From Parcubacteria group bacterium GW2011_GWA2_40_23 (GTDB lineage Bacteria; Patescibacteriota; Patescibacteriia; UBA11705; JABHMO01), in contig LBYP01000010.1 in NCBI GenBank assembly GCA_000996245.1, positions 1-51,463 on the forward strand: 51,463 bases of DNA. Reading direction: 5' to 3'. The notes under the pieces are model-generated. The model had not been told where the DNA came from. It saw only the letters and a program-made list of their open reading frames with translations, and did not search any database. Shown here piece by piece: positions 5,631 to 34,010 of this stretch (position 1 is its first letter; each line of letters begins with the position of its first letter). The translations under genes and the position numbers were made by a program.

Positions 5631-5663
5631 GTCAACTCCACTGTACGTGGGGTTGACTTTTTT
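5631..5663 (+). terminator. Intrinsic terminator of the Cys-rich gene; its 3-prime arm doubles as the -35 of the next promoter
   Basis: GTCAACTCCAC-TGTAC-GTGGGGTTGAC (11 bp with one G.T pair) followed by TTTTTT. Confidence 0.7.
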
Positions 5664-5680
5664 ATAGTTTGTGCTATAAT
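5653..5680 (+). promoter_or_regulatory. Sigma70-type extended -10 promoter for the GC-rich SPFH operon
   Basis: TTGACT (5653-5658), 16-nt spacer, TGc-TATAAT (5675-5680). AGGAGG at 5717-5722, ATG at 5728. Confidence 0.6.
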
Positions 5681-5727
5681 GTAAGGTCGTAAATTACGCG
5701 ACAAAACAACCGTCATAGGAGGACCCC

Positions 5728-6756
5728 ATGTTGACGTTCATTGGAATCGGAATCGTTGTGCTCGTCTTGCTGGGGTGGTACCTCAGCAAGTGCTTGGTCG
5801 TCACCGAGGCCGCGACCTACACAGTCGTCGGTCTCTTGGGAAAGAGCCCCACGAAAAGCCTGACCCCACCCTTGAACCTCATTTGCTACCCGATCACACA
5901 GGTTATGGGCGTGATCACCACTGAAGTGCAACGGTACAACATGACCAACTGCACCCTCTCCTGCAAGATGACGGACCCGAGTGGCGGTCAAGGCATCGGC
6001 AAACTCTCGACCAAGGAAGTATCGCTGGCCTACCAGTTCTACTTCTGGACGCAGGCCGAGATCCGCGACAAGGACGCCACGGTCGTCCTCCCCCCGGGAT
6101 TCGGCATGGCGCTCCAGCTACAAAAGTTCTTCGAGTTCGTGGGGTTCCACGAGGCGAAGATCGACATTGCCAGCATGGAGGAGACCCTCAAAGACTCCCT
6201 CCAAGGAGCTTTCACACAGCACAGCAAGAGCTTGGAACTGGAGGCAGCCATCAACTTCCCCAAAGCCTCGCTCACGGAGATCAAAGACGCCCTCCAGAGG
6301 GAGTTCTGGGAAGATGGTCTGCCGGTGAAGGTGATCGTTCTGCAACGGAATGCCCCATTCGAAGCCCTCGACACACTTGGGAGAGCCATCGCTTCTCGGG
6401 CTGAGTCGCTGGCATTGCTGCCAGCCGAAGTGGCCAAGGCTGAGAATGCCCGCCGCCTGGCGGTCATCAAAGCCACCACCGACAGGGAAGTTGCAGGCAT
6501 CAAAGTTGAGACAACTCGACTCGAAGGAGAAGCCGAAGGTGCCAAGGTCAAGGTCCGAGTGGCCGCGATCATGGACGCCTACGGGCTCACTGTCATGCCC
6601 CCAGCTGAACGGATGGCTAATTACCTAAGCCTCGAAAGTCTCGAGGTATACAAAGTGATGGCCGCCAGCCCGAGCAGCAAAATGATCCTTGTGCCGACCG
6701 AACTGCTCTCAAGCATCGGTGGCGCACTGTCACACCTCACTGGAGTCAAACCATGA
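5728..6756 (+). CDS. SPFH/Band-7 (stomatin/prohibitin/HflKC-like) membrane protein, GC-rich
   Basis: N-terminal TM (FIGIGIVVLVLLGWYL). Ala/Glu-rich coiled region AEVAKAENARRLAVIKATTDREVAGIKVETTRLEGEAEGAKVKV. C-terminal YLSLESLEVYKVMAASPSSKMILVP resembles SPFH tails. Family call is from motif recall only. Confidence 0.55.
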   Translation: MLTFIGIGIVVLVLLGWYLSKCLVVTEAATYTVVGLLGKSPTKSLTPPLNLICYPITQVMGVITTEVQRYNMTNCTLSCKMTDPSGGQGIGKLSTKEVSLAYQFYFWTQAEIRDKDATVVLPPGFGMALQLQKFFEFVGFHEAKIDIASMEETLKDSLQGAFTQHSKSLELEAAINFPKASLTEIKDALQREFWEDGLPVKVIVLQRNAPFEALDTLGRAIASRAESLALLPAEVAKAENARRLAVIKATTDREVAGIKVETTRLEGEAEGAKVKVRVAAIMDAYGLTVMPPAERMANYLSLESLEVYKVMAASPSSKMILVPTELLSSIGGALSHLTGVKP

Positions 6757-7385
6757 AGCGAAGCACTGCACTCATTCTCTCGCTGATGCTCTTCGGAGTG
6801 GGTCTCGTCCTCGCGGACAACCTGCTCGACTGGAGTATGGGGTGGAAGATTGCAGTTGCGGTAGCGCTGGCACTCGTGCCGTTCTACTTCATCGGACGAG
6901 GTTCCGCTCCCACCACCCCCGGCACTACTACGACCCCCGCCGCAGCCATCACCTACCCAGGGCTAGACAAAGCCTGGATCTGGATCCTGACCATCCTCCT
7001 CGGAGGTCTGGTCCTCTACGGTGCTGTGTTCTGGGTCAGCGTCCCCATTCGCGACTTGGTCAGGGAAGCAGTTGCTACCCCGGACACACATATCGTGGAG
7101 AACGGCTTCCCGCGACACGATGCTCCGCGCCAGGAGCAGGACATCATTCCGCCGTTCAACAAGATCTTGTCTGCCGGCAAGACCTACCAGGTCTTCAAGC
7201 TGAAGCGGGGGGACATCTTCAACGTCACCCAGCTCTCGGCGCCGATCAGGTACAAGATCGAAAACCCTGTCGTGACAGGGTTCGCCCCGATCGACAACCC
7301 GATAAAAATTCGCGTGAACTACGATGGCAACCTACTGGTCGTCTCTACGGCCGGCAGGAACACCGTCATGATCGCGCGAGAATGA
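6753..7385 (+). CDS. Membrane protein with a beta-rich C-terminal domain, translationally coupled to the SPFH gene (position analogous to NfeD partners)
   Basis: ATGA start/stop overlap with the upstream gene. Three hydrophobic segments, a Pro/Thr linker, and a C-terminal half rich in beta-type residues. Same GC-rich composition as the SPFH gene. Confidence 0.55.
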   Translation: MKRSTALILSLMLFGVGLVLADNLLDWSMGWKIAVAVALALVPFYFIGRGSAPTTPGTTTTPAAAITYPGLDKAWIWILTILLGGLVLYGAVFWVSVPIRDLVREAVATPDTHIVENGFPRHDAPRQEQDIIPPFNKILSAGKTYQVFKLKRGDIFNVTQLSAPIRYKIENPVVTGFAPIDNPIKIRVNYDGNLLVVSTAGRNTVMIARE

Positions 7386-7389
7386 CAAA

Positions 7390-7425
7390 CCGCCCCGTTG
7401 CACATGCGACGGGGCGGTACTTTTT
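7390..7425 (+). terminator. Intrinsic terminator ending the first GC-rich block
   Basis: CCGCCCCGT-N10-ACGGGGCGG followed by TACTTTTT. Confidence 0.75.
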
Positions 7426-7439
7426 AAAATTACGAATTT

Positions 7440-8089: not shown

Positions 8090-8090
8090 A

Positions 8091-9987: not shown

Positions 9988-10072
9988 GGGCGGGTGGCGA
10001 AATTGGTAGACGCGCACGACTCAAAATCGTGTGGGGTAACTCATGAGAGTTCGATTCTCTCCCCGCCCACCA
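9988..10072 (+). tRNA. tRNA-Leu (anticodon CAA), long variable arm, CCA encoded
   Basis: Acceptor GGGCGGG/CCCGCCC. D arm GGCGAAATTGGTAGACGC. Anticodon stem-loop CACGA-CTCAAAA-TCGTG. T arm GAGAG-TTCGATT-CTCTC. Discriminator A plus CCA. Confidence 0.9.
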
Positions 10073-10101
10073 TACAGTACACGCCTGGCGTGACTGTATG
10101 G
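10070..10101 (+). repeat. tRNA 3-prime hairpin repeat, copy 1 (starts on the CCA end)
   Basis: CCATACAGT-A-CACGC-CTG-GCGTG-ACTGTATGG, 14 bp of stem. Confidence 0.8.
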
Positions 10102-10171
10102 TGAACCATCCATTAGTAGTAGTGCACGATTCTCGTGGTTGTATGGTGCACCATCCATTGGCAAACGATTT

Positions 10172-10253: not shown

Positions 10254-11126
10254 TTAGGACTGACGTACGGGCTTGAAGTTGTCGAGGATGCTCGCACGCG
10301 CCCAGAGACGGATGTACTTTTCGGTCTTCTCGGACCGGATGGACTGCTTGAGCAAGTTCTGTGCCACGACCAGCTCCGGGAAGATCATATGATCCAAATC
10401 AAGCCGCAAGAAGCGGTAGAGATCCGGTCCGACCTTGAAGGAGGTCCTCTGGACCAAAAGCTTCTCCGTCAGCTCGAAGAGCATCTGAACTGCGGGATCC
10501 GTGTTCGCGGGATCAGGACGCACACGCGCCTTGAAGATGTCGATCTGCTCGAGGGCGTGCATCGCCAGTTCGTGATCTACGATCGTGATCGTGTTCACGC
10601 GCGCCATCACTCGACGCCGTCCATCGGTACTGGTGAAAGTCACCTGCGTACGCAAACGACCCTTGGCATCGAACAAATGCGGGAAAACGTGCGCCGTAAC
10701 GTAATTTTCACGCGCACCACTGGCTTGCACCAACGCTGCATTCAACGCGAAAACCTGGTTCACGATCTCGTCGTTCAAAGCACAGCGCGCCTTCTCGGCG
10801 TCCATGACACGATCGAGCTCGCTCTTCAGGGCATCGCGATTCCGCTGTTCCTCGGCCAGCTGTTCACGCAGTTCATCACGACGACGCGTCAGCTCCGGAT
10901 CCTTCTCATCGAAGGTGTCGATGACAGCATGAAGCTCTTTCTCTCGCTTGGTACCGTGCCGAGTAAGGTGACGCAGATCATGCACTGCCTTCTTGTACCG
11001 CCGGTGCCACGTTGTCCAAGAACCACGCGCTTGGGCTTCGAGCTTCTTCAGCTGCTCGAGCTTCTTGTCCAGTACCGCCAGACCTTCTTGCAGCGTTCCG
11101 ATCACGGTTTTCTTGCCTTGTCCCAT
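10254..11126 (-). CDS. GC-rich hypothetical cytoplasmic protein with an N-terminal coiled coil (single-gene island between tRNA genes)
   Basis: Start chosen at MGQGKK (ATG 11126), preceded by GGAGG with a 7-nt spacer. Balanced composition, own promoter and terminator. The C-terminal LLKQSIRSEKTEKYIRLWAR region loosely recalls Mu-like phage DUF3164 proteins; this is unverified recall. Confidence 0.6.
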   Translation of the reverse strand: MGQGKKTVIGTLQEGLAVLDKKLEQLKKLEAQARGSWTTWHRRYKKAVHDLRHLTRHGTKREKELHAVIDTFDEKDPELTRRRDELREQLAEEQRNRDALKSELDRVMDAEKARCALNDEIVNQVFALNAALVQASGARENYVTAHVFPHLFDAKGRLRTQVTFTSTDGRRRVMARVNTITIVDHELAMHALEQIDIFKARVRPDPANTDPAVQMLFELTEKLLVQRTSFKVGPDLYRFLRLDLDHMIFPELVVAQNLLKQSIRSEKTEKYIRLWARASILDNFKPVRQS

Positions 11127-11170
11127 GAGTAACCTCCATAACTCTACAGTGGAACGCACTCGAACTAGCT

Positions 11171-11199
11171 AGATTAATTTAAATTTAGCTCCTTGTCAA
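11171..11199 (-). promoter_or_regulatory. Promoter of the GC-rich minus-strand gene
   Basis: On the minus strand: TTGACA (11199-11194), 17-nt spacer, TAATCT (11176-11171). Confidence 0.5.
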
Positions 11200-11405: not shown

Positions 11406-11482
11406 ACCAGGGTAGCTCAGTCGGTTAGAGCGAGGGAATCATAACCCCTAGGCCGGCGGTTCGATCCCGCCCCCTGGTACCA
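11406..11482 (+). tRNA. tRNA with anticodon CAT (elongator Met or lysidine-modified Ile2), CCA encoded
   Basis: Acceptor ACCAGGG/CCCTGGT. D arm GCTCAGTCGGTTAGAGC. Anticodon loop ATCATAA. T arm GGCGG-TTCGATC-CCGCC. 77 nt. Confidence 0.75.
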
Positions 11483-11511
11483 TAAAGTACACGCTACGCG
11501 TGACTTTATGG
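11480..11511 (+). repeat. tRNA 3-prime hairpin repeat, copy 2 (starts on the CCA end)
   Basis: CCATAAAGT-A-CACGC-TAC-GCGTG-ACTTTATGG. Differs from copy 1 by a compensatory C-G to A-T change. Confidence 0.8.
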
Positions 11512-11530
11512 TAAACCACATAATCTAGTT

Positions 11531-11559
11531 TAAAGTACACGCTATGCGTGACTTTATGG
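11531..11559 (+). repeat. tRNA 3-prime hairpin repeat, copy 3 (not attached to a tRNA)
   Basis: TAAAGT-A-CACGC-TAT-GCGTG-ACTTTATGG. Confidence 0.7.
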
Positions 11560-11596
11560 CAAGCCATTCATTGATTGTGGTAAACCACAATTTACT

Positions 11597-12550: not shown

Positions 12551-12637
12551 AAAAATGTACGGACGGACCGAATGGCCCGTAGGGAACAAAAATTTTTGTT
12601 CCCTACAACGCGGACGCGTTGCAACGTACATTTTTTT
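12549..12637. terminator. 89-nt four-way-junction palindromic element, copy 1; probable bidirectional terminator between convergent genes
   Basis: Closing stem AAAAAAATGTACG/CGTACATTTTTTT encloses three hairpins: ACGGACC-GAAT-GGCCCGT, AGGGAACAAAAATTTTTGTTCCCT and CAACGCG-GA-CGCGTTG. Both flanking stop codons lie in the A/T runs. Confidence 0.7.
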
Positions 12638-15235: not shown

Positions 15236-15928
15236 CTATATTTTTTCGATTAATATATCGTTGAAAGATCCATGTTGCTTGACTGTCAGGTGTCGTTGTT
15301 TCAAAAGTTCCAAAATAGCTAAAAAATTTATGATGATTTCTGTTCGATTCTGAGCGTTACCGATCAAGTTATGGAACTTTATATTTTTTTGATTTGAAAA
15401 AATTTCTTTAAGCTCCAATATTTTTTGTTGAAGACTAATTGTTTTCTCCACCATTTGTCGTGGCAACTTAACAAGTGGATCTAAGCGCTTTAAAACAACC
15501 AAAAAACAATCTTTGAGTGATTCAACATTAATATTTGGTGGTGGCGAAAATTCAATTTCTGTTTTAGCTGGCGGTCGTGTGCGAGAAAAAGAGAATCTTC
15601 CCTGTTTAATCATCTCGTCAATCTTTTTTGAGGCTTCAATAAACTCTTTATAAAGTTTCAACTGCGTTTCCAAACTTTCTTCCTCAACTTCTGTCTCTAG
15701 ATATGGCAGTAATGCTCGCGACTTGAGCAATAACAATCGTCCCGCGATGACCAAAAAGTCAGCTAATTCCTCCGGTTCTATTTCAACTAACTTTTCCAAG
15801 TATTCGATGTACTGTTCTGTCACCTGCGCCAAAGAAATCTCAGTAATATTCAGATCTTCTTTTTCGATAAGTTGGAGCAACAGATCTAACGGTCCATTAA
15901 ATTTTTCTGATGTTACTTTGTATGCCAT
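15236..15928 (-). CDS. scpA: Segregation and condensation protein A
   Basis: 230 aa. FNGPLDLLLQLIEKEDLNITEISLAQVTEQYIEYL signature. Confidence 0.85.
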   Translation of the reverse strand: MAYKVTSEKFNGPLDLLLQLIEKEDLNITEISLAQVTEQYIEYLEKLVEIEPEELADFLVIAGRLLLLKSRALLPYLETEVEEESLETQLKLYKEFIEASKKIDEMIKQGRFSFSRTRPPAKTEIEFSPPPNINVESLKDCFLVVLKRLDPLVKLPRQMVEKTISLQQKILELKEIFSNQKNIKFHNLIGNAQNRTEIIINFLAILELLKQRHLTVKQHGSFNDILIEKI

Positions 15929-17648: not shown

Positions 17649-18932
17649 TTAAGGATAAATGCGATTGATCATTCTTGGAAAAGGAATCGTTTCGCGGACA
17701 TGTTGAACTCCACACATCCAACCGACTAAACGTTCTAAGCCGACACCGAAGCCCGAATGAGGCACTGACCCGAATTTGCGTAGTTCTAGGTACCACGTAA
17801 ACGCCTCTTCGGGCAGCTTATCATCGACGATACGTTTGTGCATGATCTCAAAACTATCTTCACGTTGCGAACCACCAATAACTTCGCCATGGCCTTCGGG
17901 CGCAATCATGTCATCGCACAAAGCGAGGTCACCATCGCGCTTCATATAAAAAGCTTTTATTTCTGCTGGCCATTTTTCAATAAATAAAGGCTTATCAAAT
18001 TTTTGCATGATTAATGTTTCATCATCATTACCTAAATCTTCGCCATCTTTAATGTCAGAACCAAGTTCTTGCAACATTTTAATGGCTTCAGCATAAGTTA
18101 AACGGTTGAATGGTGCTTTAATTTTTTCGAGCACAGTTTTATCTCGTTCTAAAATATCTAATTCTTTTTGATTAATCTCTAAAACTTTTTTGGCAACATG
18201 CGCAATCAAGTTTTCTTGAAGTTCTAAACTTTTAACATGATCATAAAATGCCATTTCTGCATCCATCATCCAAAATTCAGTTAAATGTCTTTTGGTTTTT
18301 GATTTTTCGGCGCGGAAAACTGGGCCAAAGTCAAAAACTTTCCCGAAGGAAGAAATAGCAGCTTCGATATAGAGTTGACCACTTTGAGAAAGATAAGCTT
18401 TACCTTCATCAAAATATTTCATTTCGAACAATTCAGTGGTGCCTTCGCAAGCAGCTGGAGTTAAAATCGGAGAATCAATTTTAATAAAGCCATCATTATT
18501 TAAGAATTCATAAATCGCATTAATGACGGTGTTGCGCACTCGTTGTATGGCCCATTGTTTTGGTGCGCGCAACCATAAGTGACGATTTTCTAATAAAAAA
18601 TCGGGACCATGTTCTTTTTTCCCGATTGGATATTCTTCGGCGCGTTGGAAAAATTTTAATGTTTTGACTTGGACTTCGTACTCATCTAATTTTGGATGTT
18701 TAGAAACAGTACCAATAATTTCAACAGAACTTTCGATGGTCATTTCTTCCATGACTTTCCACGTTTGCTCATCAACACTAGTTTGACTGACGATACACTG
18801 CGCAAAGCCAGAACCATCGCGTAACTGTATAAACCCTATTTTGCCAGATGAACGGAAATTATAAACCCAGCCTTTGAGAACCACTTCTTTGTCTAAATTT
18901 GCTTTGAGATCTTTGATGTATGTTTGTTCCAT
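17649..18932 (-). CDS. asnS: Asparaginyl-tRNA synthetase (class IIb)
   Basis: 427 aa. YLSQSGQLYIE, GPVFRAEKSKTKRHLTEFWMMDAEMAF, GFGVGLERL, FPRMINRIYP. Confidence 0.85.
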   Translation of the reverse strand: MEQTYIKDLKANLDKEVVLKGWVYNFRSSGKIGFIQLRDGSGFAQCIVSQTSVDEQTWKVMEEMTIESSVEIIGTVSKHPKLDEYEVQVKTLKFFQRAEEYPIGKKEHGPDFLLENRHLWLRAPKQWAIQRVRNTVINAIYEFLNNDGFIKIDSPILTPAACEGTTELFEMKYFDEGKAYLSQSGQLYIEAAISSFGKVFDFGPVFRAEKSKTKRHLTEFWMMDAEMAFYDHVKSLELQENLIAHVAKKVLEINQKELDILERDKTVLEKIKAPFNRLTYAEAIKMLQELGSDIKDGEDLGNDDETLIMQKFDKPLFIEKWPAEIKAFYMKRDGDLALCDDMIAPEGHGEVIGGSQREDSFEIMHKRIVDDKLPEEAFTWYLELRKFGSVPHSGFGVGLERLVGWMCGVQHVRETIPFPRMINRIYP

Positions 18933-18964
18933 AAAAAATGTTTAAACTGTATATATTTTAGCCT

Positions 18965-19093
18965 AAATTTACGAATAGTACAAATTATTTGGATGTTACG
19001 AATTACTGCTTACCAATAACCTAAATTTCTATTTAACAATCAAATCCAGATAGTAATTCGTAAGTTCAACTTCATGTAGCTATTCGTAAATTT
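18965..19093. repeat. Nested inverted-repeat element of the TACGAAT word family, complete copy
   Basis: Outer arms AAATTTACGAATAG / CTATTCGTAAATTT (14 bp, perfect). Inner arms TTACGAATTACT / AGTAATTCGTAA (12 bp, perfect). Confidence 0.85.
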
Positions 19094-19103: not shown

Positions 19104-19132
19104 TTGACAAAAAACGCGAAAAATAATAAGGT
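19104..19132 (+). promoter_or_regulatory. Promoter of cassette P1
   Basis: TTGACA, 17-nt spacer, TAAGGT. The same TTGACA-N17-TAAGNT form is seen at 21392 and 24065. Confidence 0.5.
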
Positions 19133-19175
19133 TTTGTCATGAGCGGAGAAAGTAAAAACCACGTTGAGGCAAAAC

Positions 19176-19982
19176 ATGTTCTTCATCCTCTTTTTGCTAG
19201 CATTAGTCGGAGTTGTGTTGTTCATCGTCGGAGTAACCGAACACAAGGAACAAGTCGGCACTCTTGGCTTAGCCCTGGTTCTTATCTGTGCAATCCTCGC
19301 TCTGATCTTGCCGAAAGAGGCACAGGCTCAGACTGCCACCTGCACCGGCGACAGCTGGATCGGCAACGTCTGCCAGAGTGGTGGAGTGAACCAATCCAAA
19401 GAACCTTCAATCTCCTCCCACCAAGTCAGCTACAACACCGGCGAGTACTCGGTTATCGCACAGCCAGGAAGCTGCAACGACAAGACCTGCTGGTACACGA
19501 TCATCGTGTATGCTAAAAGCGGGATCATCACAGCCATGTTCGAGAACAACTACACGCTCATCGAAGCAATTTCTCCTGGTTGTTGGAAGTTGCAACAGAC
19601 GGACGAGTTCATAGGTCTCGCGGGCTTGCCAAATGACGCCGGACCGTTCATGCCGCTCGTCATCTGCAAACGCGAGGGTCTTTACTACGACGGCACGGAT
19701 AAAGAACTTGCACCGTTCCTCAAAGAACGCCTCGACAAGATCCTCTGTGCCACGCGCGACTGCCGAGATGCAAGAACCTGCGTGAACGATGTGAAGATGA
19801 AAGCGCTCATCGTCGAGCTGCACATCATCCAGATGATCTTGTGGAAAGCTGGTTGGAAAATTGCCTTGCCCGAAGGTTGGCATGGTGGCTTGAACCAAGG
19901 TGAGATAAACCGTTTGACGCATGACGTCGAGCGCATCATCAACATCCGTTTCCAAGGTCACCTGCCTTCGACCTCTCGATGA
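19176..19982 (+). CDS. GC-rich secreted/membrane paralog P1 (uncharacterised family)
   Basis: ATG 19176 is preceded by GAGG. Hydrophobic N-terminus ending AQAQ. Shares blocks with P2-P4: VSYNTGEYSVIAQPGSC..C.Y.I, GCWKLQQTDEFIGL, VICKREG. Confidence 0.75.
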   Translation: MFFILFLLALVGVVLFIVGVTEHKEQVGTLGLALVLICAILALILPKEAQAQTATCTGDSWIGNVCQSGGVNQSKEPSISSHQVSYNTGEYSVIAQPGSCNDKTCWYTIIVYAKSGIITAMFENNYTLIEAISPGCWKLQQTDEFIGLAGLPNDAGPFMPLVICKREGLYYDGTDKELAPFLKERLDKILCATRDCRDARTCVNDVKMKALIVELHIIQMILWKAGWKIALPEGWHGGLNQGEINRLTHDVERIINIRFQGHLPSTSR

Positions 19983-19993: not shown

Positions 19994-20104
19994 ATGGACG
20001 ACAACAACGCTCCGATCACCGGCTGGAGCATCCTGAAGTTCATCGGCTTGCTCATCTTCTGTGCATGGCTGTTCAAGTGCTTTTGCCAGCTCATCGCTGG
20101 CTAG
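19994..20104 (+). CDS. 36-aa single-TM mini-protein S1
   Basis: AGGAG RBS 7 nt upstream. MDDNNAPITGWSILKFIGLLIFCAWLFKCFCQLIAG. GC-rich. Followed at once by a terminator. Below the ORF-track size cutoff. Confidence 0.5.
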   Translation: MDDNNAPITGWSILKFIGLLIFCAWLFKCFCQLIAG

Positions 20105-20111
20105 ACCCTCG

Positions 20112-20150
20112 CCCCCACAATCGACATCGGTTGTTGGGGGTATTTATTTA
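20112..20150 (+). terminator. Intrinsic terminator after S1
   Basis: CCCCCACAA-N10-TTGT(T)GGGGG followed by TATTTATTT. Confidence 0.7.
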
Positions 20151-20228
20151 CTATGATTACCCTGATTACGAGGTGATTACTATGATTAGTTTGGGAAATA
20201 AAAAAATGTTTGTTTGCTTGTTTCTTTT

Positions 20229-20250
20229 CCCGCCGCTCGCGAGCAGCGGG
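20229..20250. repeat. GC mini-hairpin with CTCGCGAG core, present in module 1 and absent from module 2
   Basis: CCCGCCGCTCGCGAGCAGCGGG. A similar hairpin, CCCCGCTTCTCGCGAGAGGCGGGG, occurs at 43898-43921. Confidence 0.75.
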
Positions 20251-20362
20251 ATTTGTTTATTTTAATATGAGGAATGATTAACAGTTCGATTTGATGTCGG
20301 GCTCGCTTAGACCGCGAAGTGAGGCAGGCGAATTAATATTTAGTAGTGGCTTAGAACAATTC

Positions 20363-20392
20363 CGTACGTGCAGGTCGCGACCTGCACGTACG
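20363..20392. promoter_or_regulatory. Perfect 30-bp palindrome upstream of the P2 promoter (candidate operator)
   Basis: CGTACGTGCAGGTCG|CGACCTGCACGTACG, 54 nt upstream of the -35. No T-run follows. Second copy at 22997-23026 has one central mismatch. Confidence 0.6.
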
Positions 20393-20445
20393 AGACCAAT
20401 TTCGAGTTAATTAATGTAATTTTAGACAAAAAGTACTGACAACGA

Positions 20446-20474
20446 TTGACAAAACATTTTATTTGTGCTATCAT
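20446..20474 (+). promoter_or_regulatory. Extended -10 promoter of cassette P2
   Basis: TTGACA (20446-20451), 17-nt spacer, TGc-TATCAT (20469-20474). Confidence 0.65.
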
Positions 20475-20504
20475 GTGAGTAACAAACCTGCCTGAGGGCA
20501 CACC

Positions 20505-21233
20505 ATGCGGAAGATCATCGAAGCCACCGTCCTCGCCCTGTGCGCCATCGCCGCGATCCTGGTCATGGCCACCCCGGCCAAGTGCCAGACCAACACCTGC
20601 CCCTGCGCCATCGCCGACTGCCCGCCCTGCGACGAGTCGTCGCCCTACAACGCGACCCGCGCCGCCGAATCCGAAGAGGGCATCCAGACCTACACCAGCA
20701 ACAGGTTCCAGGTCAAAGCAACACCCCTCTGCGGAGGCTCCGGTTGCACCTACGCCATCGAAGTCTCGCGACTCGATGGAAAACACGAAGTCCTGTTCCG
20801 GTTCCTCAACCTGCTGTCAGGGATCACTGTCCTGAACGAAACCTGTGTGCTCATCCAGAGCACCAAGGACTTCAACGGCATCGACATGTTGCCCGAGCTC
20901 TACGGACCGTCGATCGGGATAGTTCTCTGCAAGGAAGGAAAAAACTTCGTCGAGAAGACCGCCTCGTTCATGGGCAATTTCTTGCGTGATCAAATCTCCG
21001 GACTGGAAGCCTGGCACGACACGTTGGTCGACAACCCCAGGGTGCTGAAGTCGCTCATCATCAAAGCTATGGCCATCAAGGAGCTGTTCTACCGCGAAGG
21101 ACTTCAGCCTCCCAAGATGCCAAAGATGGACGCCGACATCGCCAAGCTCGACAGCAAGACCTACAAGAGAATCGAGCTCGAAATCATCAAGCGCTGCAAC
21201 CAGCGCATGCTTTACCGGGGTCTCGCGAACTAG
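20505..21233 (+). CDS. GC-rich secreted/membrane paralog P2 (uncharacterised family)
   Basis: 242 aa. Hydrophobic N-terminus. QTYTSNRFQVKATPLCGGSGCTYAIEV, TCVLIQSTKDFNGI, VLCKEG, IKELFYREGLQPP, C-terminal RMLYRGLAN. Confidence 0.8.
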   Translation: MRKIIEATVLALCAIAAILVMATPAKCQTNTCPCAIADCPPCDESSPYNATRAAESEEGIQTYTSNRFQVKATPLCGGSGCTYAIEVSRLDGKHEVLFRFLNLLSGITVLNETCVLIQSTKDFNGIDMLPELYGPSIGIVLCKEGKNFVEKTASFMGNFLRDQISGLEAWHDTLVDNPRVLKSLIIKAMAIKELFYREGLQPPKMPKMDADIAKLDSKTYKRIELEIIKRCNQRMLYRGLAN

Positions 21234-21255
21234 TCGCGCCCCGCGTGCTACACAG

Positions 21256-21288
21256 CTGCTACCTTCTTCCCGGGGGGTAGCAGTTTTT
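21256..21288 (+). terminator. Intrinsic terminator after P2
   Basis: CTGCTACC-N12-GGTAGCAG followed by TTTTT. Confidence 0.75.
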
Positions 21289-21348
21289 CTATACTACGAA
21301 TTACTAATCGTCTACAAATCTACTAATAGCTACGAATAGCTTCATAAA
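21289..21348 (+). repeat. TACGAAT/TACTAAT word block following the P2 terminator
   Basis: ctatactacgaattactaatcgtctacaaatctactaatagctacgaatagcttcataaa. Near-identical copy at 23914-23973. Confidence 0.85.
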
Positions 21349-21391
21349 TAAGAAATTTTATCTAAGATTAAACAAAAAAACATCATAACCA

Positions 21392-21420
21392 TTGACAAAA
21401 CAATATGTTAGTGCTAAGTT
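21392..21420 (+). promoter_or_regulatory. Promoter of cassette P3
   Basis: TTGACA, 17-nt spacer, TGc-TAAGTT. Confidence 0.55.
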
Positions 21421-21451
21421 TTAATCAATTCATTTCCCTAAGGGGAAGATC

Positions 21452-22135
21452 ATGCCGATCGCTCGTCCCTTCGACAAATCCTTCTGGCTGGCAGTCATCC
21501 TGTTCTCCATCGCTCTCGCCTGTGTGATCTTCTCGTTCACTCCACGTGACGCCAACGCCCAGACCGTGACGATTCGCGTATCCTACACCAGCAACGGTTA
21601 CATCGTGAAGGCCTCGCCTTCATGCGTCAACTCCAACTGCGTGTACGTCATCAGCATCACGCAGAAGAACAACGACACGATCATGACCTTGCAGAACGAC
21701 AGCCCGTTCGTGGAAGTGCTGGACGACAAGTGCATCCGCATCAATTCGACGAACGACTTCATGGGCATCGGCGACGCCGAACACGAGTTCGGTCGCTGGA
21801 TCCCGCAAGTCGTGTGTGTGGAAGGTAGGATCTACGCCGACCGCACCGCTTCGCGCCTCGAGAAAGAGCTCCGGCTCCGAGTGGCGGACATCGAGTCTAC
21901 ACTCGCGCTCGATGACATCATGGGCAGCTACTGCGACGAGCCGTGGCGGTCAAATGCCACCTTCGCCAAGATCGTGGAGTTGAAGGCCATCCAGCACATG
22001 TTCATTCGCGAGAACCTAACGCCCCCAGCCATGCCAATCCTCGGTCTCCTCGATAAAATGTTCTCCGAAGATCTCGACACCATCATGCGTCAGCTCTTAG
22101 AGGAACGCCTGACCTATCGAGGGCTCGGGTCGTGA
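21452..22135 (+). CDS. GC-rich secreted/membrane paralog P3 (uncharacterised family)
   Basis: 227 aa. Signal-like N-terminus ending ANAQ. VSYTSNGYIVKASPSCVNSNCVYVISI, KCIRINSTNDFMGI, VVCVEG, IQHMFIRENLTPP, C-terminal RLTYRGLGS. Confidence 0.8.
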   Translation: MPIARPFDKSFWLAVILFSIALACVIFSFTPRDANAQTVTIRVSYTSNGYIVKASPSCVNSNCVYVISITQKNNDTIMTLQNDSPFVEVLDDKCIRINSTNDFMGIGDAEHEFGRWIPQVVCVEGRIYADRTASRLEKELRLRVADIESTLALDDIMGSYCDEPWRSNATFAKIVELKAIQHMFIRENLTPPAMPILGLLDKMFSEDLDTIMRQLLEERLTYRGLGS

Positions 22136-22184
22136 TCAACTTCTGGAACAAGTACCGTTCACCAACACCGAACCGGAGGTTTAC

Positions 22185-22628
22185 ATGTTTCCTTCGTGGA
22201 AAGAGATCGCCATTAGCTTATTCCTCGTCTCGCTAATGCTGTCCATCCTTGTCGGCCTTCACTCTATTAGCCGGGAAAAGGAGTCGACCGACACTCCCCT
22301 CTCCGCAGAAGCCTGCGAGACCGCTCTGGTCTACATGGACTTGCACCTCGACCTCGAAGCCAATCCGCCAGGTGTGAACCACTCGATCCAGAAGGACTTC
22401 GATGGTGTCCTTCTGCTGCGCAAGCAGTGTCAAGAGAGCAGCGACCGCCTGGCGCTGGTCAAGACCTACGTGACCAATGAACGGCTCGCGAAGTTGCTCG
22501 AAAATTCCTGGGACGCTACTCGAGAACTCCACCAAGTCGTAACGACTGGAGAAGCACTCATGAAGCAGCTTCCGCCCCAAGGGAAAAACTTCAAGGAGTG
22601 GCACTGCGAACAGTGCAACCAGCCCTGA
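22185..22628 (+). CDS. GC-rich N-terminally anchored hypothetical protein
   Basis: 147 aa. GGAGG RBS. One N-terminal TM (IAISLFLVSLMLSILVGL). C-terminal CEQC. Confidence 0.6.
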   Translation: MFPSWKEIAISLFLVSLMLSILVGLHSISREKESTDTPLSAEACETALVYMDLHLDLEANPPGVNHSIQKDFDGVLLLRKQCQESSDRLALVKTYVTNERLAKLLENSWDATRELHQVVTTGEALMKQLPPQGKNFKEWHCEQCNQP

Positions 22629-22657
22629 GACTAGCAACCGACAGACAGGAGGCCACC

Positions 22658-22771
22658 ATGTTCATCGTCAGCTCCGTCCCCCAGGTTTCCCAGGCTGGCG
22701 GCGTGGTCATCATCATCCTGCTGCTGCTCCTCATCTTAGCTTCCAGTCAGAGCAAGCGCTGGCAAGCCTAA
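22658..22771 (+). CDS. 37-aa single-TM mini-protein S2
   Basis: AGGAGG RBS. MFIVSSVPQVSQAGGVVIIILLLLLILASSQSKRWQA. Occupies the same position as S1, immediately before the shared terminator/module. Confidence 0.5.
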   Translation: MFIVSSVPQVSQAGGVVIIILLLLLILASSQSKRWQA

Positions 22772-23140
22772 CTCTCGCCCCCACAATCGACATCGGTTGT
22801 GGGGGTATTTTTTTACCATGATTACTACTATGATTACCCTGATTACGAGGTGATTACTATGATTAGTTTGGGAAATAAAAAATGTTTGTTTGCTTGTTTA
22901 TTTTAATATGATTAACAACTCGATTTGATGTCGGGCTCGCTTCGACCGCGAAGTGAGGCAGGCGAATTAATATTTAGAAGGGGCTTAGAACAATTCCGTA
23001 CGTGCAGGTCACGACCTGCACGTACGAGACCAATTTCGAGTTAATTAATGTAATTTTAAACAAAAAGTGCTGACAACGATTGACAAAACATTTTATTTGT
23101 GCTATCATGTGAGTAACAAACCTGCCTACTGGGGAACACC
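22772..23140 (+). repeat. AT-rich intergenic module, copy 2
   Basis: Terminator CCCCCACAA/TTGTGGGGG plus T7 (22778-22814). Five GATTAC/GATTAG words (22820-22866). Palindrome 22997-23026. Promoter TTGACA 23080-23085 and TATCAT 23103-23108. Confidence 0.9.
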
Positions 23141-23860
23141 ATGAAGTCCGAGACCCAGAAAGAAATCGTGTTCTGGAGCGGTGTTTTCGCGGGCCTGGCC
23201 GTGATCCTGTGCCTGACCCTCCTCCCCTCCAAATGCACCCGCCAGACCTTCCCCAACCCGCCCAGCAGCGAACGTGCGGAAGAGACGGGCGGAGCCTATG
23301 CTGTCCGCGACCAGCTGAACAAGAAGTTCTTAGTCAGCTGGGATCCGAGCTACGGCATGAGCAGCTACAGCTACACCCTACGGATCGTCCGCAACAACGG
23401 CTCGCACGAGATGGTGGTCGCGTTCTACAACAACGACTACACCGTCCGAGTGAAGAACAACGGGCGCTGCATCGAACTGCCGATCACGCGCGACTACTGC
23501 GCGATCGGTGACGTACCCATGTCCGACTGCCCCATCGTCCCCATGGTCTTCTGCCGCGAAGGTGACAACTGGGTGGACGTGACCGCACAGCTCATGGGCA
23601 AAACCCTGCACGAGCGACTGCTCAACCTGGAACGGCTCACGGCCGTCTGGGAGGAGACCTCCGACACGCAGCGCAAAGCCATGATCGTCGAGAGCATGGC
23701 TCTCCGTGAGCTGTACTACCGTCGCGGCCTCGTCCCGCCCACCACCACGCTCATGACCAACCTTCTGACCTACTTCGGGGAAAAGTACTACAACGAAGTA
23801 GAGACGGGGGTCATGGAGGCAACGAGCAATCGCCTGCTCTACCGGGATCTCGCGAAATAG
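23141..23860 (+). CDS. GC-rich secreted/membrane paralog P4 (uncharacterised family)
   Basis: 239 aa. TM anchor VFWSGVFAGLAVILCLTLL. RCIELPITRDYCAIG, VFCREG, LRELYYRRGLVPP, C-terminal RLLYRDLAK. Confidence 0.8.
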   Translation: MKSETQKEIVFWSGVFAGLAVILCLTLLPSKCTRQTFPNPPSSERAEETGGAYAVRDQLNKKFLVSWDPSYGMSSYSYTLRIVRNNGSHEMVVAFYNNDYTVRVKNNGRCIELPITRDYCAIGDVPMSDCPIVPMVFCREGDNWVDVTAQLMGKTLHERLLNLERLTAVWEETSDTQRKAMIVESMALRELYYRRGLVPPTTTLMTNLLTYFGEKYYNEVETGVMEATSNRLLYRDLAK

Positions 23861-23881
23861 TCGCTGACCCATGCTACACAG

Positions 23882-23913
23882 CTGCTACCTTCTTCACAGG
23901 GGGTAGCAGTTTT
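23882..23913 (+). terminator. Intrinsic terminator after P4
   Basis: CTGCTACC-N12-GGTAGCAG followed by TTTT. Same stem as at 21256. Confidence 0.75.
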
Positions 23914-24001
23914 CTATACTACGAATTACGAATCGGCTACGAATCTACTAATAGTTACGAATAGCTTCATAAAATTGATGGTTACGAATTAGAATTTCTA
24001 A

Positions 24002-24064: not shown

Positions 24065-24093
24065 TTGACAAAACCACCCAAAAACAGTAAGCT
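24065..24093 (+). promoter_or_regulatory. Promoter of the cupin gene
   Basis: TTGACA, 17-nt spacer, TAAGCT. 5-prime UTR hairpin GATGCC-TCT-GGCATC. GGAGG at 24124. Confidence 0.5.
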
Positions 24094-24133
24094 CTTTTGA
24101 TGCCTCTGGCATCGCAAACAACTGGAGGTTCCC

Positions 24134-24649
24134 ATGTCCACGCCCCAAGTGTTCGTAAAAACACCTGCGATCCGTATCGTCGAAACGCTCTTTGGCGGTC
24201 GCGCGTACTTGGTCGAACTGCCCGTCGATGCCCACACAGTCGTGGTCGAGGGCACCAGCTTCCCGCCCGAACTGAACGTTACCGAGTTCTCGCCCCGCGT
24301 CTACTCCATCGTCGGCAAAAAGCTGAGCGGTTCGCACGCACACCGCGCTGGCACCGAAGACGAGATCATGCTCGTGGTCGCCGGCGAAGCGACGGTGCAC
24401 CTCTGGGACGAGAGTGGCAAGCACGAAGAAGTCACCCTCCGCCCCGCGACCGACGGCCAGAAGTTCTGGGCGCTGTTCATCCGCTCCGGTATCTGGCACA
24501 CCGTACGCTACAAGCCCCACACGGCGCTGAACGTCGTCGCCTCGGTCCACTACGACCGCGAGTACTACGTCGTAGATCCAGCCGACTACTTCACCGCCGA
24601 AGGCCACGCGCTGTACCTGCACGACATCATTTCCCTTAACGGAAACTGA
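24134..24649 (+). CDS. GC-rich cupin, WxcM/FdtA-like (sugar 3,4-ketoisomerase-like fold)
   Basis: 171 aa. SGSHAHRAGTEDEIMLVVAGEA..V.L.D..G, LFIRSGIWHTVRY, NVVASVHYDREYYVVDPADYF. These match the remembered FdtA pattern (HAH.., WH, AS..YD..DY). Confidence 0.5.
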   Translation: MSTPQVFVKTPAIRIVETLFGGRAYLVELPVDAHTVVVEGTSFPPELNVTEFSPRVYSIVGKKLSGSHAHRAGTEDEIMLVVAGEATVHLWDESGKHEEVTLRPATDGQKFWALFIRSGIWHTVRYKPHTALNVVASVHYDREYYVVDPADYFTAEGHALYLHDIISLNGN

Positions 24650-24688: not shown

Positions 24689-24730
24689 CCCCGCACACAG
24701 TCATCTGTGGTGCGGGGGTTTCATTTTTGC
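24689..24730 (+). terminator. Intrinsic terminator closing the third GC-rich block
   Basis: CCCCGCACACAG-TCAT-CTGTGGTGCGGGG followed by TTTCATTTTT. Confidence 0.7.
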
Positions 24731-28477: not shown

Positions 28478-28527
28478 TAACATACACTAGTAACTATTCG
28501 CAAATTAGTAATAAAATTAGTAATAAT

Positions 28528-28902: not shown

Positions 28903-28990
28903 AAAAATGTGTGGACCGGTCCAAATGGACCGTAGGGAACAAAAATTTTTGTTCCCTACCAACGCGAATGCGTTGAGCCACACATTTTTT
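28902..28990. terminator. 89-nt four-way-junction palindromic element, copy 2; probable bidirectional terminator
   Basis: Closing stem AAAAAATGTGTGG/CCACACATTTTTT. Hairpins CGGTCC-AAAT-GGACCG, AGGGAACAAAAATTTTTGTTCCCT and CAACGC-GAAT-GCGTTG. The rplS and uvrA stop codons lie in the A/T runs. Confidence 0.7.
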
Positions 28991-31859: not shown

Positions 31860-32022
31860 AATATTTACTAATTACTAATACTATTACTAATTTACTAATG
31901 ATTACTAATTATTAGTTACGATTTGTAAATTAGTAGCAAATTCGTAATTAGTAATTAAAGAAACATGCTGTCTGCGATTATAACAATATTATTTAATCTT
32001 GTAAAGAGTTAAGTTGCGAATA

Positions 32023-32123
32023 GGGCATTTTTATTAGGATATTACGAATTATTACTTAGCAATTGAAACTTAACAGTAATTCGTAACATCAACTTTATGA
32101 CGCTATTCGTAACAAAAAACGAG
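32023..32123. repeat. Nested inverted-repeat element of the TACGAAT word family
   Basis: Outer arms GTTGCGAATAG / CTATTCGTAAC. Inner arms ATTACGAATTATTACT / CAGTAATTCGTAAC. Confidence 0.75.
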
Positions 32124-32153
32124 CCCTGATATGTGAATCAGAGCCCGTTAGAA

Positions 32154-33983
32154 TTACTTACGGAGGTCGCCCAGCTTTTGTAGCTCTACGAGACGGCTAT
32201 AGAGACCATTCTGAGCCAAGAGCTTTTCGTGGCTGCCAGACTCCGCAACCTGACCACCATCAATAACATAGATCATATCTGCTTTGCGGATAGTGGACAG
32301 TCGGTGAGCAATGGCCACGATGGAAACATCCAGCTTCTTCCGGATGGAATTGAGCATGGATTGGATTGCCAGCTCTGTTTCTGAATCAAGGCTAGAGGTT
32401 GCCTCGTCCAGAACTAGGAATTTTGCACCATTCAACAGCGCAATGTACGCTCGTGCAATGCCGACGCGCTGACGTTCACCGCCAGAAAGTCTGATGCCAC
32501 GTTCGCCGACTTGAGTTGCGAGGCCGTCGGGGAAACGATCTTGCTTCTCCATCATCGTATGAATGTGAGCAGCACGAATTGCTTCATCAACTTGCGCTGG
32601 AGTTGCATCGCGACAGGCATAAGTGATATTTTCGAGCAAAGTTGCATCAAAAACATCTACGTCTTGTTGCACGATAGCAAAGAGACGACGGTACCAATCA
32701 CGATCGAGCTGACGAATATCAATACCGTCCAGCGTGATTCGTCCATGATTAACGTCATAGACTCGACACAACAACTTTGCGACCGTAGTTTTCCCTTCGC
32801 CGCTTCGACCGACCAGAGCGATCATTTGCCGTGGCGCAATTTGCAGATCAAAAAATTCCAGAACCGCCTGATCCTTCCCAGGATAATTGAAAGAAATTTT
32901 GTCGAAGCGGATATCGCCAATTGTCGTCGTCGGAACAAAAGCAGTTGAAGAGTTCGTGATCTCTGTGTCATCATTCATAATCTCAGTCAAACGATTAACC
33001 GAGACCAAGTTCCGCAAGATCTTAGAATAATTATTAAAGATCTCGCCCAACCCCTCAATCGTCACATTCCCTGTTGTGATGATAAATACCACTGTGCCGA
33101 CTTTTGTCTGCCCCATCAAAACGAAATACACTCCGAGTGCAATCGTCGCAAGGAAAAACACATTTAAAACAATGCGAATCCCCATAATGTAGTATCGCTC
33201 AGTCATGTTAATATCAGTATCCAAATCACGCATACATTCACGTACTGTTTGCAATCGTTCTTTTTCGCGTCGCTCTTGGACAAAGTCCTGAACTGTTCTG
33301 ATGTTCAGCAAAGATTGAGTAAAGTAACCGCTTGATTCTTCCTTTTTCTTTTCCCACTTTTCCCAATCACCGGACATACGTTCGTAATAGCGTTTATTGA
33401 TCCAATACGCTGGAGCGAATGGCAGGAAAAACAACAAACCGAGTCTCCAATCTAAGATCATCATGCAAGTGAGGTTCGCCACGAGATAGATGAACTGAGG
33501 TAAAATGTCCCAAGAAAGTTTAACGCAGATTTCGACCATCCGCTCAATTCCCTTCTCGATTTTCGAAATCTTTTTCCCGGTGTTTTCTCGTTCATGATAA
33601 CCGAGAGAAAGTGCCAGCAACTTCGATTGCGCCAACACCGGCCACCACGCTTCCAGTCTGATCACCCCTTTGATGAAGATTGTCTCTTTGACAAAGAGCG
33701 TTACGAGGATTGCACTAATTTTGACTGCGAACATGATGATGATAAAGCAGATCAGTCGAGTAGAAATTGTCCCGGACTTAAGAACTTCGGGCAGGTCGTC
33801 AAAGATCAGTTTCAAGAAATACGGAAATGCGAGCGCCAGCAGTTGCGTAACTATTAACCAATAGAAGCCCAGCTTCATCGCTCGTTGCTCAGGACCAACC
33901 AATTTCCAAAAGTTCTTGATGCCAGTCAAGAAAAAACTCAGACCTTTGTCTTCGTAACGGAATCCATCTTCCCAGTTTGCCAT
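32154..33983 (-). CDS. ABC exporter, fused permease and ATPase (MsbA/MdlB-like), intermediate GC
   Basis: Start MANWEDGF (33983) is preceded by GGAGG with a 5-nt spacer. Six-TM N-terminal half. GRSGEGKTT, LSGGERQRVGIARA, LVLDEATSSLD. Hairpin terminator GAGCCCTGAT/ATCAGAGCCC at about 32112-32140. Confidence 0.85.
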   Translation of the reverse strand: MANWEDGFRYEDKGLSFFLTGIKNFWKLVGPEQRAMKLGFYWLIVTQLLALAFPYFLKLIFDDLPEVLKSGTISTRLICFIIIMFAVKISAILVTLFVKETIFIKGVIRLEAWWPVLAQSKLLALSLGYHERENTGKKISKIEKGIERMVEICVKLSWDILPQFIYLVANLTCMMILDWRLGLLFFLPFAPAYWINKRYYERMSGDWEKWEKKKEESSGYFTQSLLNIRTVQDFVQERREKERLQTVRECMRDLDTDINMTERYYIMGIRIVLNVFFLATIALGVYFVLMGQTKVGTVVFIITTGNVTIEGLGEIFNNYSKILRNLVSVNRLTEIMNDDTEITNSSTAFVPTTTIGDIRFDKISFNYPGKDQAVLEFFDLQIAPRQMIALVGRSGEGKTTVAKLLCRVYDVNHGRITLDGIDIRQLDRDWYRRLFAIVQQDVDVFDATLLENITYACRDATPAQVDEAIRAAHIHTMMEKQDRFPDGLATQVGERGIRLSGGERQRVGIARAYIALLNGAKFLVLDEATSSLDSETELAIQSMLNSIRKKLDVSIVAIAHRLSTIRKADMIYVIDGGQVAESGSHEKLLAQNGLYSRLVELQKLGDLRK

Positions 33984-34010
33984 AACCGCCTCCATTGTTG
34001 TTGTTAAAGA

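Follow-up and report, generated by a model that had tools for sequence, protein, structure and literature searches.

A GC-rich, Shine-Dalgarno-led class of clade-restricted genes in the AT-rich chromosome of a Parcubacteria group bacterium

GC-rich transcription units and their initiation signals

Seven short transcription units of strongly deviating base composition lie in a stretch of 51,463 nucleotides (nt) from Parcubacteria group bacterium GW2011_GWA2_40_23 (contig LBYP01000010.1, hereafter the window). Together they hold nine protein genes and two mini-open reading frames (mini-ORFs), all GC-rich and all preceded by a Shine-Dalgarno (SD)-like motif, among AT-rich backbone genes that have no such motif. 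Because GC-rich codons and the SD motif have persisted through speciation, this style goes beyond what a single recent gene import would leave behind. The window matches contig k127_1597108 of the Rifle groundwater metagenome (ENA ERZ978281) and contig LBWI01000018.1 of NCBI assembly GCA_000993485.1; 24 nt within asnS (17816-17839) are missing from the NCBI copy and present in the ENA assembly. Since relatives of its asparaginyl-tRNA synthetase, the asnS product, are labelled Patescibacteria, Parcubacteria and Falkowbacteria, the host is a small-genome bacterium of the candidate phyla radiation (CPR) with about 38% GC. The nearest representative of this protein (92% amino-acid identity) belongs to L004, one of the related genomes and contigs that are cited here by working handles.

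An earlier note on this DNA, made from the letters alone, had reported 21, 33, 35 and 43 G+C per 60 nt at 15241, 6001, 10561 and 20521, and a recount gives exactly these numbers. In profiles at 200 nt and 1 kb, GC rises to 52-65% in blocks near 5.7-7.4, 10.2-11.1 and 19.2-24.7 kb, over a background of 28-42%. The note had also placed the switches at the edges of transcription units, with AT-rich spacers between. This is borne out when unit limits are taken from the predicted transcription start to the terminator end: the seven units have 53-61% GC, the adjoining 100 nt on either side 24-42%, and the long spacers within the islands (36-42%) fall inside the backbone spacer range.

Codon usage, which the note had proposed to compute, is not uniform. 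The G+C fraction at third codon positions (GC3) is 0.19-0.41 in backbone genes, 0.66-0.85 in the nine GC-rich protein genes and 0.86 in the mini-ORF at 19994-20104; the gene of an ABC exporter, at 0.50, is intermediate. The codon fractions of GC-rich and backbone genes differ accordingly (TTC 0.96 vs 0.29, ATC 0.86 vs 0.22, AAG 0.66 vs 0.21). Amino-acid usage is shifted mildly (lysine 5.4% vs 8.5%, alanine 8.1% vs 6.4%), and the composition of the GC-rich products is close to that of the resident proteome. The low GC3 of rplS (0.28), a ribosomal protein gene, makes it unlikely that translational selection for high expression produced the codon bias. Structured RNA (ribosomal, transfer or other) was rejected as the source of the GC-rich blocks: Rfam finds only the tRNAs at 9988 and 11266, ARAGORN adds a third at 11406, and a permissive Rfam scan of the 19.1-24.7 kb island gave no match.

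Initiation signals divide the genes in the same way, as the note had supposed when it gave every GC-rich gene an SD motif and the backbone genes none. SD strength was scored as duplex energy of positions -20 to -3 with the assumed anti-SD sequence ACCUCCUUA. All 11 GC-rich starts reach -5.5 kcal/mol or lower (seven of them -8 or lower), while the 32 backbone starts all stay at -4.2 or higher (Mann-Whitney p = 5e-7), so that an SD-like motif stands at 11/11 GC-rich and 0/32 backbone starts. Random 18-mers within GC-rich coding sequence reach -5.5 in only 15% and -8 in 3% of cases, and composition alone therefore does not account for the motifs. Each motif that the note had cited was found: AGGAGG at 5717, GGAGG for the genes at 11126 and 22185, the cupin gene and the ABC exporter, AGGAG for 19994 and AGGAGG for 22658. 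Two gene populations with distinct codon and initiation styles thus share one replicon.

Neither the window nor any of the loci read from relatives contains a 16S gene or its 3' end. The GC-rich genes of L004, L084, L088, L090, L093, L096 and L097 are also preceded by SD-like motifs, and the backbone genes of the relatives' genomes are not. The conservation of the motif at fixed spacing in at least eight genomes suggests that it is functional.

A second regularity was seen at the starts. CC occupies positions -2/-1 in 9/11 GC-rich starts (ACC ATG or CCC ATG, and GCCACC ATG at 22658), for example at 5725-5727, 20502-20504, 22655-22657 and 24131-24133; only 11126 (TC) and 22185 (AC) differ. Relatives have this CC before their GC-rich starts too, and backbone starts have A/T there.

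The features of the GC-rich units and of the ABC exporter are listed below; promoters and terminators are predictions from sequence, energies are SD duplex energies in kcal/mol, and S0, S1, S1b and S2 are four paralogs of one family, here the S family.

5653-5680, forward: promoter-like TTGACT-16-TATAAT with TG extension, unit 1
5717-5722, forward: AGGAGG, 5 nt ahead of the ATG at 5728, energy -10.2
5728-6756, forward: GC-rich gene, 342 amino acids (aa), N-terminal membrane helix, GC3 0.73, no family match
6753-7385, forward: GC-rich gene, 210 aa, signal-peptide-like N-terminus, GC3 0.76, ATGA overlap with the previous stop
7389-7418, forward: intrinsic-terminator-like hairpin of unit 1
10254-11126, reverse: GC-rich gene, 290 aa, coiled-coil, GC3 about 0.69-0.70, weak match to PHROG 846 of unknown function
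11133-11137, reverse: GGAGG ahead of the ATG at 11126, energy -10.0
11171-11199, reverse: promoter-like TTGACA-N17-TAATCT of the 10254-11126 gene
19104-19132, forward: promoter-like TTGACA-N17-TAAGGT of the unit of S0 and mini-ORF 1
19176-19982, forward: S0, S-family paralog, 268 aa, GC3 0.66, GAGG at 19166-19169
19994-20104, forward: mini-ORF 1 (called S1 in the earlier note), 36-aa membrane peptide, AGGAG upstream, conserved in L084
20105-20493, forward: spacer module X, copy 1, with terminator, AT-rich spacer, 30-nt palindrome and promoter (20446-20474)
20505-21233, forward: S1, S-family paralog, 242 aa, GC3 0.83
21254-21285, forward: terminator-like hairpin after S1, start of spacer module Y, copy 1 (21246-21348)
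21392-21420, forward: promoter-like TTGACA-N17-TAAGTT of the unit of S1b, G22185 and mini-ORF 2
21452-22135, forward: S1b, S-family paralog, 227 aa, GC3 0.80
22185-22628, forward: GC-rich gene G22185, 147 aa, N-terminal membrane helix, GC3 0.71, GGAGG upstream
22658-22771, forward: mini-ORF 2 (called S2 in the earlier note), 37-aa membrane peptide, AGGAGG upstream
22771-23127, forward: module X, copy 2, with terminator (22777-22806) and promoter (23080-23108)
23141-23860, forward: S2, S-family paralog, 239 aa, GC3 0.85
23872-23973, forward: module Y, copy 2, with terminator hairpin (about 23880-23911) and TACGAAT-type repeat array
24065-24093, forward: promoter-like TTGACA-N17-TAAGCT of the cupin unit
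24134-24649, forward: cupin of the FdtA/WxcM C-terminal type, 171 aa, GC3 0.81, GGAGG upstream
24689-24729, forward: terminator-like hairpin and T-run at the island end, before rluD (24917)
32154-33983, reverse: ABC exporter (MsbA-like), GC3 0.50, GGAGG at 33993-33989

The 10254-11126 gene sits between tRNA-Leu and two tRNA-Met genes, and L004 has a GC-rich ortholog in the same slot. The ABC exporter probably starts at the ATG of its fifth codon (33983), since the GGAGG comes after the first ATG (33995) and before this one. Public gene calls for this contig (L001, L002) omit S0, S2 and the cupin (19164-19982, 23141-23860, 24134-24649) and give instead ORFs of 184/125, 164/100 and 193 residues that overlap them in antisense or out of frame; gene finders that were trained on AT-rich backbone sequence seem to be confused by the high GC.

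Unit anatomy, repeated spacers and gene products

Each unit consists of a near-consensus sigma-70 promoter, a short SD-like leader, one to three coding sequences and an intrinsic-terminator-like hairpin with a T-run. Eleven sites of the pattern TTGACA-N17-TANNNT lie in the window, where 0.73 would be expected; six precede GC-rich units, and the others lie before tRNA-Leu, in a LexA-like/HNH region and at 44932. Only unit 1 departs from the pattern, by its TTGACT and 16-nt spacing. The consensus type is rare before the backbone genes of the window, so that backbone-style, the note's term for the promoters of the GC-rich units, applies only in part; what stands of this description is that the promoter and terminator modules around the GC-rich coding sequences share motifs with backbone spacers.

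Among the shared motifs are heptamers of the TACGAAT, TACTAAT and TAGTAAT type, 51/65 copies of which fall within the 14% of the window that is non-coding. Their arrays (31860-32113, 18957-19092, 21290-21345, 23915-23990, 102-197 and 28488-28524) border GC-rich units as well as backbone genes (uvrA, rplS, the first ORF) and could be protein-binding sites or UP-like elements.

Two spacer modules occur twice in the large island. In module X (20105-20493 and 22771-23127, about 370-390 nt) a 220-nt core is 96% identical between the copies, and in module Y (21246-21348 and 23872-23973) segments are 94-95% identical. The coding sequences that these near-identical modules flank are paralogs of only 25-32% identity. 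Module X also contains, beside other hairpins, the perfect 30-nt palindrome CGTACGTGCAGGTCGCGACCTGCACGTACG (20363-20392), of which the second copy (22997-23026) differs by one base. The middle of the module has no counterpart in L084 and no Rfam match.

Other hairpins recur at some distance from these modules. Four copies of a 36-nt hairpin repeat, each with a CCA end, lie at 10073-10153 and 11483-11566, two right after tRNA-Leu and two after the second tRNA-Met, and bracket the 10254-11126 gene together with the tRNA-Met pair. Identical or near-identical terminator-like hairpins, such as GTAGGGAACAAAAATTTTTGTTCCCTAC and CCTGCACCACAAACTGCCTTTGGGTGCAGG, stand behind unrelated backbone genes (12579-12606 and 28932-28959; 1938-1967 and 41142-41171).

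The GC-rich products comprise the S family, two mini-peptides, the cupin and three orphans, and most have a signal-peptide-like or membrane-helix N-terminus. The cupin passes the curated Pfam threshold for PF05523, at 38.2 bits (E 1.5e-9) where 23 are required. For the remaining GC-rich genes Pfam, PHROG, NCBIfam and PADLOC give no family match apart from the weak PHROG match listed above. These scans returned no integrase or transposase among the GC-rich products and no meaningful match to PADLOC defence models.

S proteins have an N-terminal signal or anchor helix followed, in the AlphaFold model, by a beta-sheet domain and a helical bundle. The model of S1, built on a 22-sequence alignment, has a mean predicted local distance difference test (pLDDT) score of 87.6. 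Comparison with the PDB gave no match at E <= 0.001, with template-modelling (TM) scores below 0.3, and the viral structure library BFVD gave no match either; the predicted fold is possibly new. The S proteins probably act at the cell surface of an episymbiont.

Distribution, persistence and exchange among relatives

A search with S1 over 5.8 billion clusters returned S1 itself only, and the cupin has 3 clusters in the same collection. A profile of the four S paralogs matched 22 clusters among 1.84 billion representatives, and a word-indexed search with the resulting 22-member alignment found 3 proteins. The taxonomic best-match check that the earlier note had asked for thus gives homologs solely in CPR context, and no donor lineage of matching composition in these large protein searches. 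A prophage or plasmid origin was rejected too: the weak PHROG match of the 10254 gene is the one positive result, tblastn against 50,697 phage records found no match, three IMG/VR scans found no relative, and the viral fold library was negative. Flanking att repeats were not seen either: the island edges carry no repeats but the motif arrays common to other spacers, and tRNA genes flank the 10254-11126 gene alone.

The comparison with relatives covers the asnS-rluD and tRNA-Leu-tRNA-Met slots. For the S family every member with readable DNA was inspected in its context, that of the P0017 contig by position only, and the start positions of some S genes in relatives are uncertain. All readable members lie in AT-rich CPR chromosomes, mostly in the asnS-rluD slot, and in 9/10 AT-rich genomes the family is GC-rich with an SD-like motif. 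The relatives compare as follows.

L004: asnS-rluD slot; S GC3 0.79-0.90; backbone about 0.3
L084: asnS-rluD slot; S GC3 0.69-0.96; backbone about 0.3
L093: upstream of rluD, an S1 homolog (GC3 0.87) with two cupin genes; backbone 0.32-0.35
L090: beside rluD; S GC3 0.91; backbone 0.37-0.55
L096: asnS-rluD slot; S GC3 0.89; backbone 0.18-0.38
L088: beside secDF; S GC3 0.66 and 0.80; backbone 0.26-0.30
L092: solitary S gene; GC3 0.69; backbone about 0.34
L097: short contig; S GC3 0.83; backbone 0.41-0.50
L009: beside rluD; S GC3 0.35, the exception; backbone 0.23-0.41

S genes between or beside asnS and rluD are therefore found in the window, L004, L084, L093, L090, L096, L009 and the P0017 contig, whose member is placed between the two genes; cupin orthologs adjoin rluD in L004 and L093. 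The number of ORFs in the slot varies from genome to genome, with 8 for the window, 3 for L004, at least 7 for L084 and 2 for L096. The divergence spanned is considerable, L090 having 68% amino-acid identity in uvrA and 43% in rluD. Near asnS of the more distant relatives L007, L011, L012 and L013 the islands are absent. The AT-rich homolog of L009 is SD-led as well, with AAGGGGG before its ATG and a TTGACA promoter of its own.

The arrangement recurs in independent data. Nine contigs from different assemblies have the same or a similar arrangement as the window, four related genomes show the same architecture, and in run SRR29904087 a contig found in 4 samples matches 20464-22855 with 100% identity, AT-rich spacer included. 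The short GC-rich contigs L003, L086 and L087 are pieces of these islands, with breaks where the spacers are repeated. A metagenome scan with a conserved 27-mer of the promoter and 5' untranslated region (5'UTR) found only two contigs, both of the L084-type genome. GC-elevated stretches at the asnS loci of L043 and L078 were not counted, as they have no codon periodicity and are probably RNA genes.

Composition has outlasted the time in which it should have decayed under neutral change. In the decay model, which takes fourfold-degenerate sites of the backbone as neutral and stationary, 664 such sites give a per-lineage retention of the initial GC excess of about 0.55 between the window and L084. 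The orthologs S0, S1b and S2 still have a GC of 0.64-0.97 at fourfold sites (GC4), which would need an ancestral GC4 of 0.88-1.47; for L004 retention is 0.23 and the ancestral GC4 needed is 1.8-2.7. Ortholog GC3 thus remains at 0.66-0.97 in species whose backbone fourfold sites are near saturation. Either the GC-richness is kept by a directional force or the genes entered each lineage after the splits.

Backbone genes of the window and L084 differ by a synonymous divergence (dS, after the NG86 method and rough where codon bias is strong) of 0.44-1.4, with a ratio of nonsynonymous to synonymous divergence (dN/dS) of 0.02-0.05. Island genes have a dN/dS of 0.15-0.59 and the backbone one of 0.02-0.13, and dS of island genes is below that of the flanking genes, which fits synonymous-site constraint, more recent exchange, or both. 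S0, S1b and S2 have the same order and orthology in the window and L084, S0 with a dS of 1.0 near that of the backbone. Because of this conserved order and orthology, and because syntenic slots are common, we favour descent with maintenance over entry after the splits.

Exchange of parts of genes is equally apparent. A module of promoter, 5'UTR and signal peptide in front of S1 (window 20417-20608) is 85% identical to L084 11064-11253; the 640 nt of mature-domain sequence that follow in L084 have no nucleotide homology, which returns right after the stop codon, at the terminator. In L093 the mature part of S1 is 87% identical at the nucleotide level (dS 0.36), with flanking backbone at 75% (dS 1.6-2.5) and an N-terminal part that differs from that of the window S1. 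As the flanks are conserved in L084, the mature domain is common to L093 and the 5'UTR is conserved across three species, the AT-rich modules serve as handles for cassette swapping. Of the earlier idea that foreign genes had been captured into resident promoter and terminator slots, the slots stand, since the modules are reusable and the same module precedes unrelated mature domains. The capture is not supported: no high-GC donor was found, relatives carry GC-rich orthologs in the same slots, and the decay test fails, so that tests for a donor, for absence in relatives and for decay all come out against simple foreign capture.

The ABC exporter has counterparts at the same place beside uvrA in L011, L078 and the P0017 contig, and homolog fragments in the first two have a GC3 of 0.31 and 0.23. 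It looks like a native gene that was shifted to the GC-rich style or replaced by an allele of that style. L004 lacks the stretch that runs from this exporter to a Type IIG restriction-modification enzyme (31900-38200); there uvrA abuts a porG-like gene.

Composition varies elsewhere in the window and beyond it. A gene for a secreted protein of 733 residues with many cysteine-rich repeats (3403-5604; G+C 0.55 at second codon positions, GC3 0.32) lifts local GC to 44-51% yet lies outside the GC-rich codon class. The region 34800-38100, which encodes a LexA-like protein and the Type IIG enzyme (PADLOC E 3.9e-162), is with 28-33% GC poorer than the backbone. Single genes with a GC3 of 0.53-0.65 in backbones of 0.2-0.3 occur in other CPR genomes, labelled Komeilibacteria (L073 1435-2556), Nomurabacteria (L026 4123-4572) and Parcubacteria (L065 208-2085), and gene-level GC mosaics may be more widespread across the CPR.

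Proposed maintenance of the gene style, and alternatives

Our preferred reading, at about even confidence, is that genes for fast-evolving exported proteins form a recombining pool confined to this clade, and that their GC-rich, SD-led style is maintained in place. The seven self-contained units encode small clade-restricted proteins of Falkowbacteria-like CPR bacteria and sit at chromosomal hot spots common to related species, asnS-rluD and tRNA-Leu-tRNA-Met; a third block precedes the parAB operon. Homologous recombination in the AT-rich conserved flanks, on one side the promoter, 5'UTR and signal-peptide module and on the other the terminator with TACGAAT-type repeats, exchanges the coding cassettes. 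Codon style and SD motif travel with the gene families, and a directional force in these genomes would keep them; selection on synonymous sites or mRNA properties is a possible force, and so is GC-biased gene conversion. The SD motif would pair with a retained anti-SD and may be needed because GC-rich leaders could not use the SD-less, AU-rich initiation of the backbone.

Several points weigh against this explanation. Maintenance in place and re-supply from a GC-rich pool both fit the lower dS and the sharing of alleles, and the decay calculation presumes vertical descent and neutral fourfold sites in the backbone. The AT-richness of the island spacers would be unexpected under pure GC-biased conversion, except if the spacers are under constraint. 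The AT-rich S homolog of L009 implies that GC-richness is not obligatory for function. The case for SD function is one of conservation, and roughly one in two Parcubacteria has no CCTCCT motif (PMC9297842). Finally, the 5728-7385 block lies outside the comparison with relatives.

Repeated overwriting of the slots through conserved flanks by a clade-specific GC-rich plasmid, phage or other element, so that the chromosomal copies would never have time to decay, is in our estimate unlikely but a serious contender. It would account for the low divergence of the S1 mature domain in L093 relative to its backbone, the generally lower dS of the islands, the variable slot content and the coincidence of cassette breakpoints with conserved modules. 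No GC-rich contig with these genes was found, however, beyond the island fragments L003, L086 and L087; viral or phage matches are lacking by sequence and by fold, and family matches of the GC-rich products include no mobility gene. Vertical descent also fits the conserved order and orthology of S0, S1b and S2 in L084 and the near-backbone dS of S0. A recent capture from a high-GC host or partner, with composition not yet decayed, would explain the strong GC3 contrast and the partition of SD motifs, the tRNA genes beside one block and the lack of islands near asnS in four distant relatives, and Patescibacteria are known to undergo horizontal transfer and to have genomic islands (PMC12455944). 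We nevertheless judge it improbable: two very large protein searches found no homolog outside the CPR clade, the same families are GC-rich in 9/10 AT-rich genomes across deep divergence, orthologs of sister species in the same slots keep a high GC3 at near-saturated synonymous sites, the amino-acid composition is resident-like, and L009 has an AT-rich homolog. An ancient foreign origin of the GC-rich genes is possible.

Joining of GC-rich fragments from another organism to a CPR contig would be a natural suspicion for a metagenomic contig with abrupt switches in composition. Its probability is close to nil, since the approximately fourteen switches all fall at predicted promoter starts or terminator ends, nine contigs of several assemblies have an identical or similar arrangement, a contig of an independent run is 100% identical across GC-rich genes and AT-rich spacer, and related genomes from other sites show the same mosaic. 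A stronger form of maintenance would have two expression styles kept on purpose: AU-rich, SD-less, short-leader genes for housekeeping, and a GC-rich, SD-dependent set of fast-evolving surface or exported proteins held by selection and separately switchable in translation (for example by anti-SD availability or ribosome composition), with the AT-rich modules as handles for cassettes between species. We regard this as a rather remote conjecture.

Known systems resemble the islands in part. Acquired genomic islands likewise have blocks of deviant GC and codon usage, accessory orphans, a location at tRNA genes (here of one block) and variable content. In the window, however, composition switches with single transcription units, resident-like AT-rich spacers lie between them, and the scans and searches described above revealed neither mobility genes nor a donor. 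Acquired islands of atypical composition are also said to decay gradually to host composition (the amelioration of Lawrence and Ochman, 1997); composition here has not decayed as amelioration predicts, because across species these slots keep GC-rich members of the same families despite saturated neutral sites.

Flexible or hypervariable islands at conserved hot spots, such as surface-polysaccharide loci and the hypervariable regions of streamlined marine bacteria, are replaced through recombination in their flanks. The islands of the window share with them a position between housekeeping genes, variable content, mostly predicted exported or membrane products, interspecies alleles and fast protein evolution; the same flanking core genes enclose differing content, and exchange by homologous recombination is seen in the S1 domain between the window, L093 and L084. 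Unlike in flexible islands, the genes are GC-richer than the core, have a strong promoter and terminator of their own and use another initiation signal.

Tandem orphan cassettes, repeated intergenic elements and codon usage unlike that of the host recall integron cassette arrays. No ORF for an IntI-type tyrosine recombinase was seen in the asnS-rluD interval or around the other blocks, and each cassette has its own promoter. The repeats look like promoter and terminator modules; at the 3' end of the cassettes, where an integron would have its attC sites, they show terminator-like hairpins with T-runs, followed by heptamer arrays and promoters. Breakpoints can fall within genes, at the boundary of signal peptide and mature domain.

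In Bacteroidota translation is reportedly SD-poor, with a sequestered anti-SD and few SD-retaining genes (attributed to Jha 2021 and McNutt 2023). The likeness lies in ordinary genes without SD and a small special set with a strong one; the SD-retaining genes of Bacteroidota are ribosomal or regulatory, whereas those of the window are compositionally distinct and encode accessory exported proteins. GC-biased gene conversion in recombining bacterial genes, which Lassalle et al. are said to have described in 2015, reportedly has a modest effect. A higher GC3 in the most-recombining genes agrees with it; a GC3 of 0.66-0.97 against about 0.3, and equally recombining spacers that remain AT-rich, do not.

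Atypical GC is routinely taken as a sign of recent transfer, and here the deviant style follows clade-restricted genes through speciation. Composition alone would mislead the detection of transfer and the binning of contigs, and gene callers already appear misled. The S family adds a protein family that is confidently folded in the predicted model and structurally unmatched. If the style is kept by selection or biased conversion, these genomes would offer a natural system for the upkeep of GC against AT-biased mutation, and for the coexistence of SD-less and SD-led initiation in CPR ribosomes.

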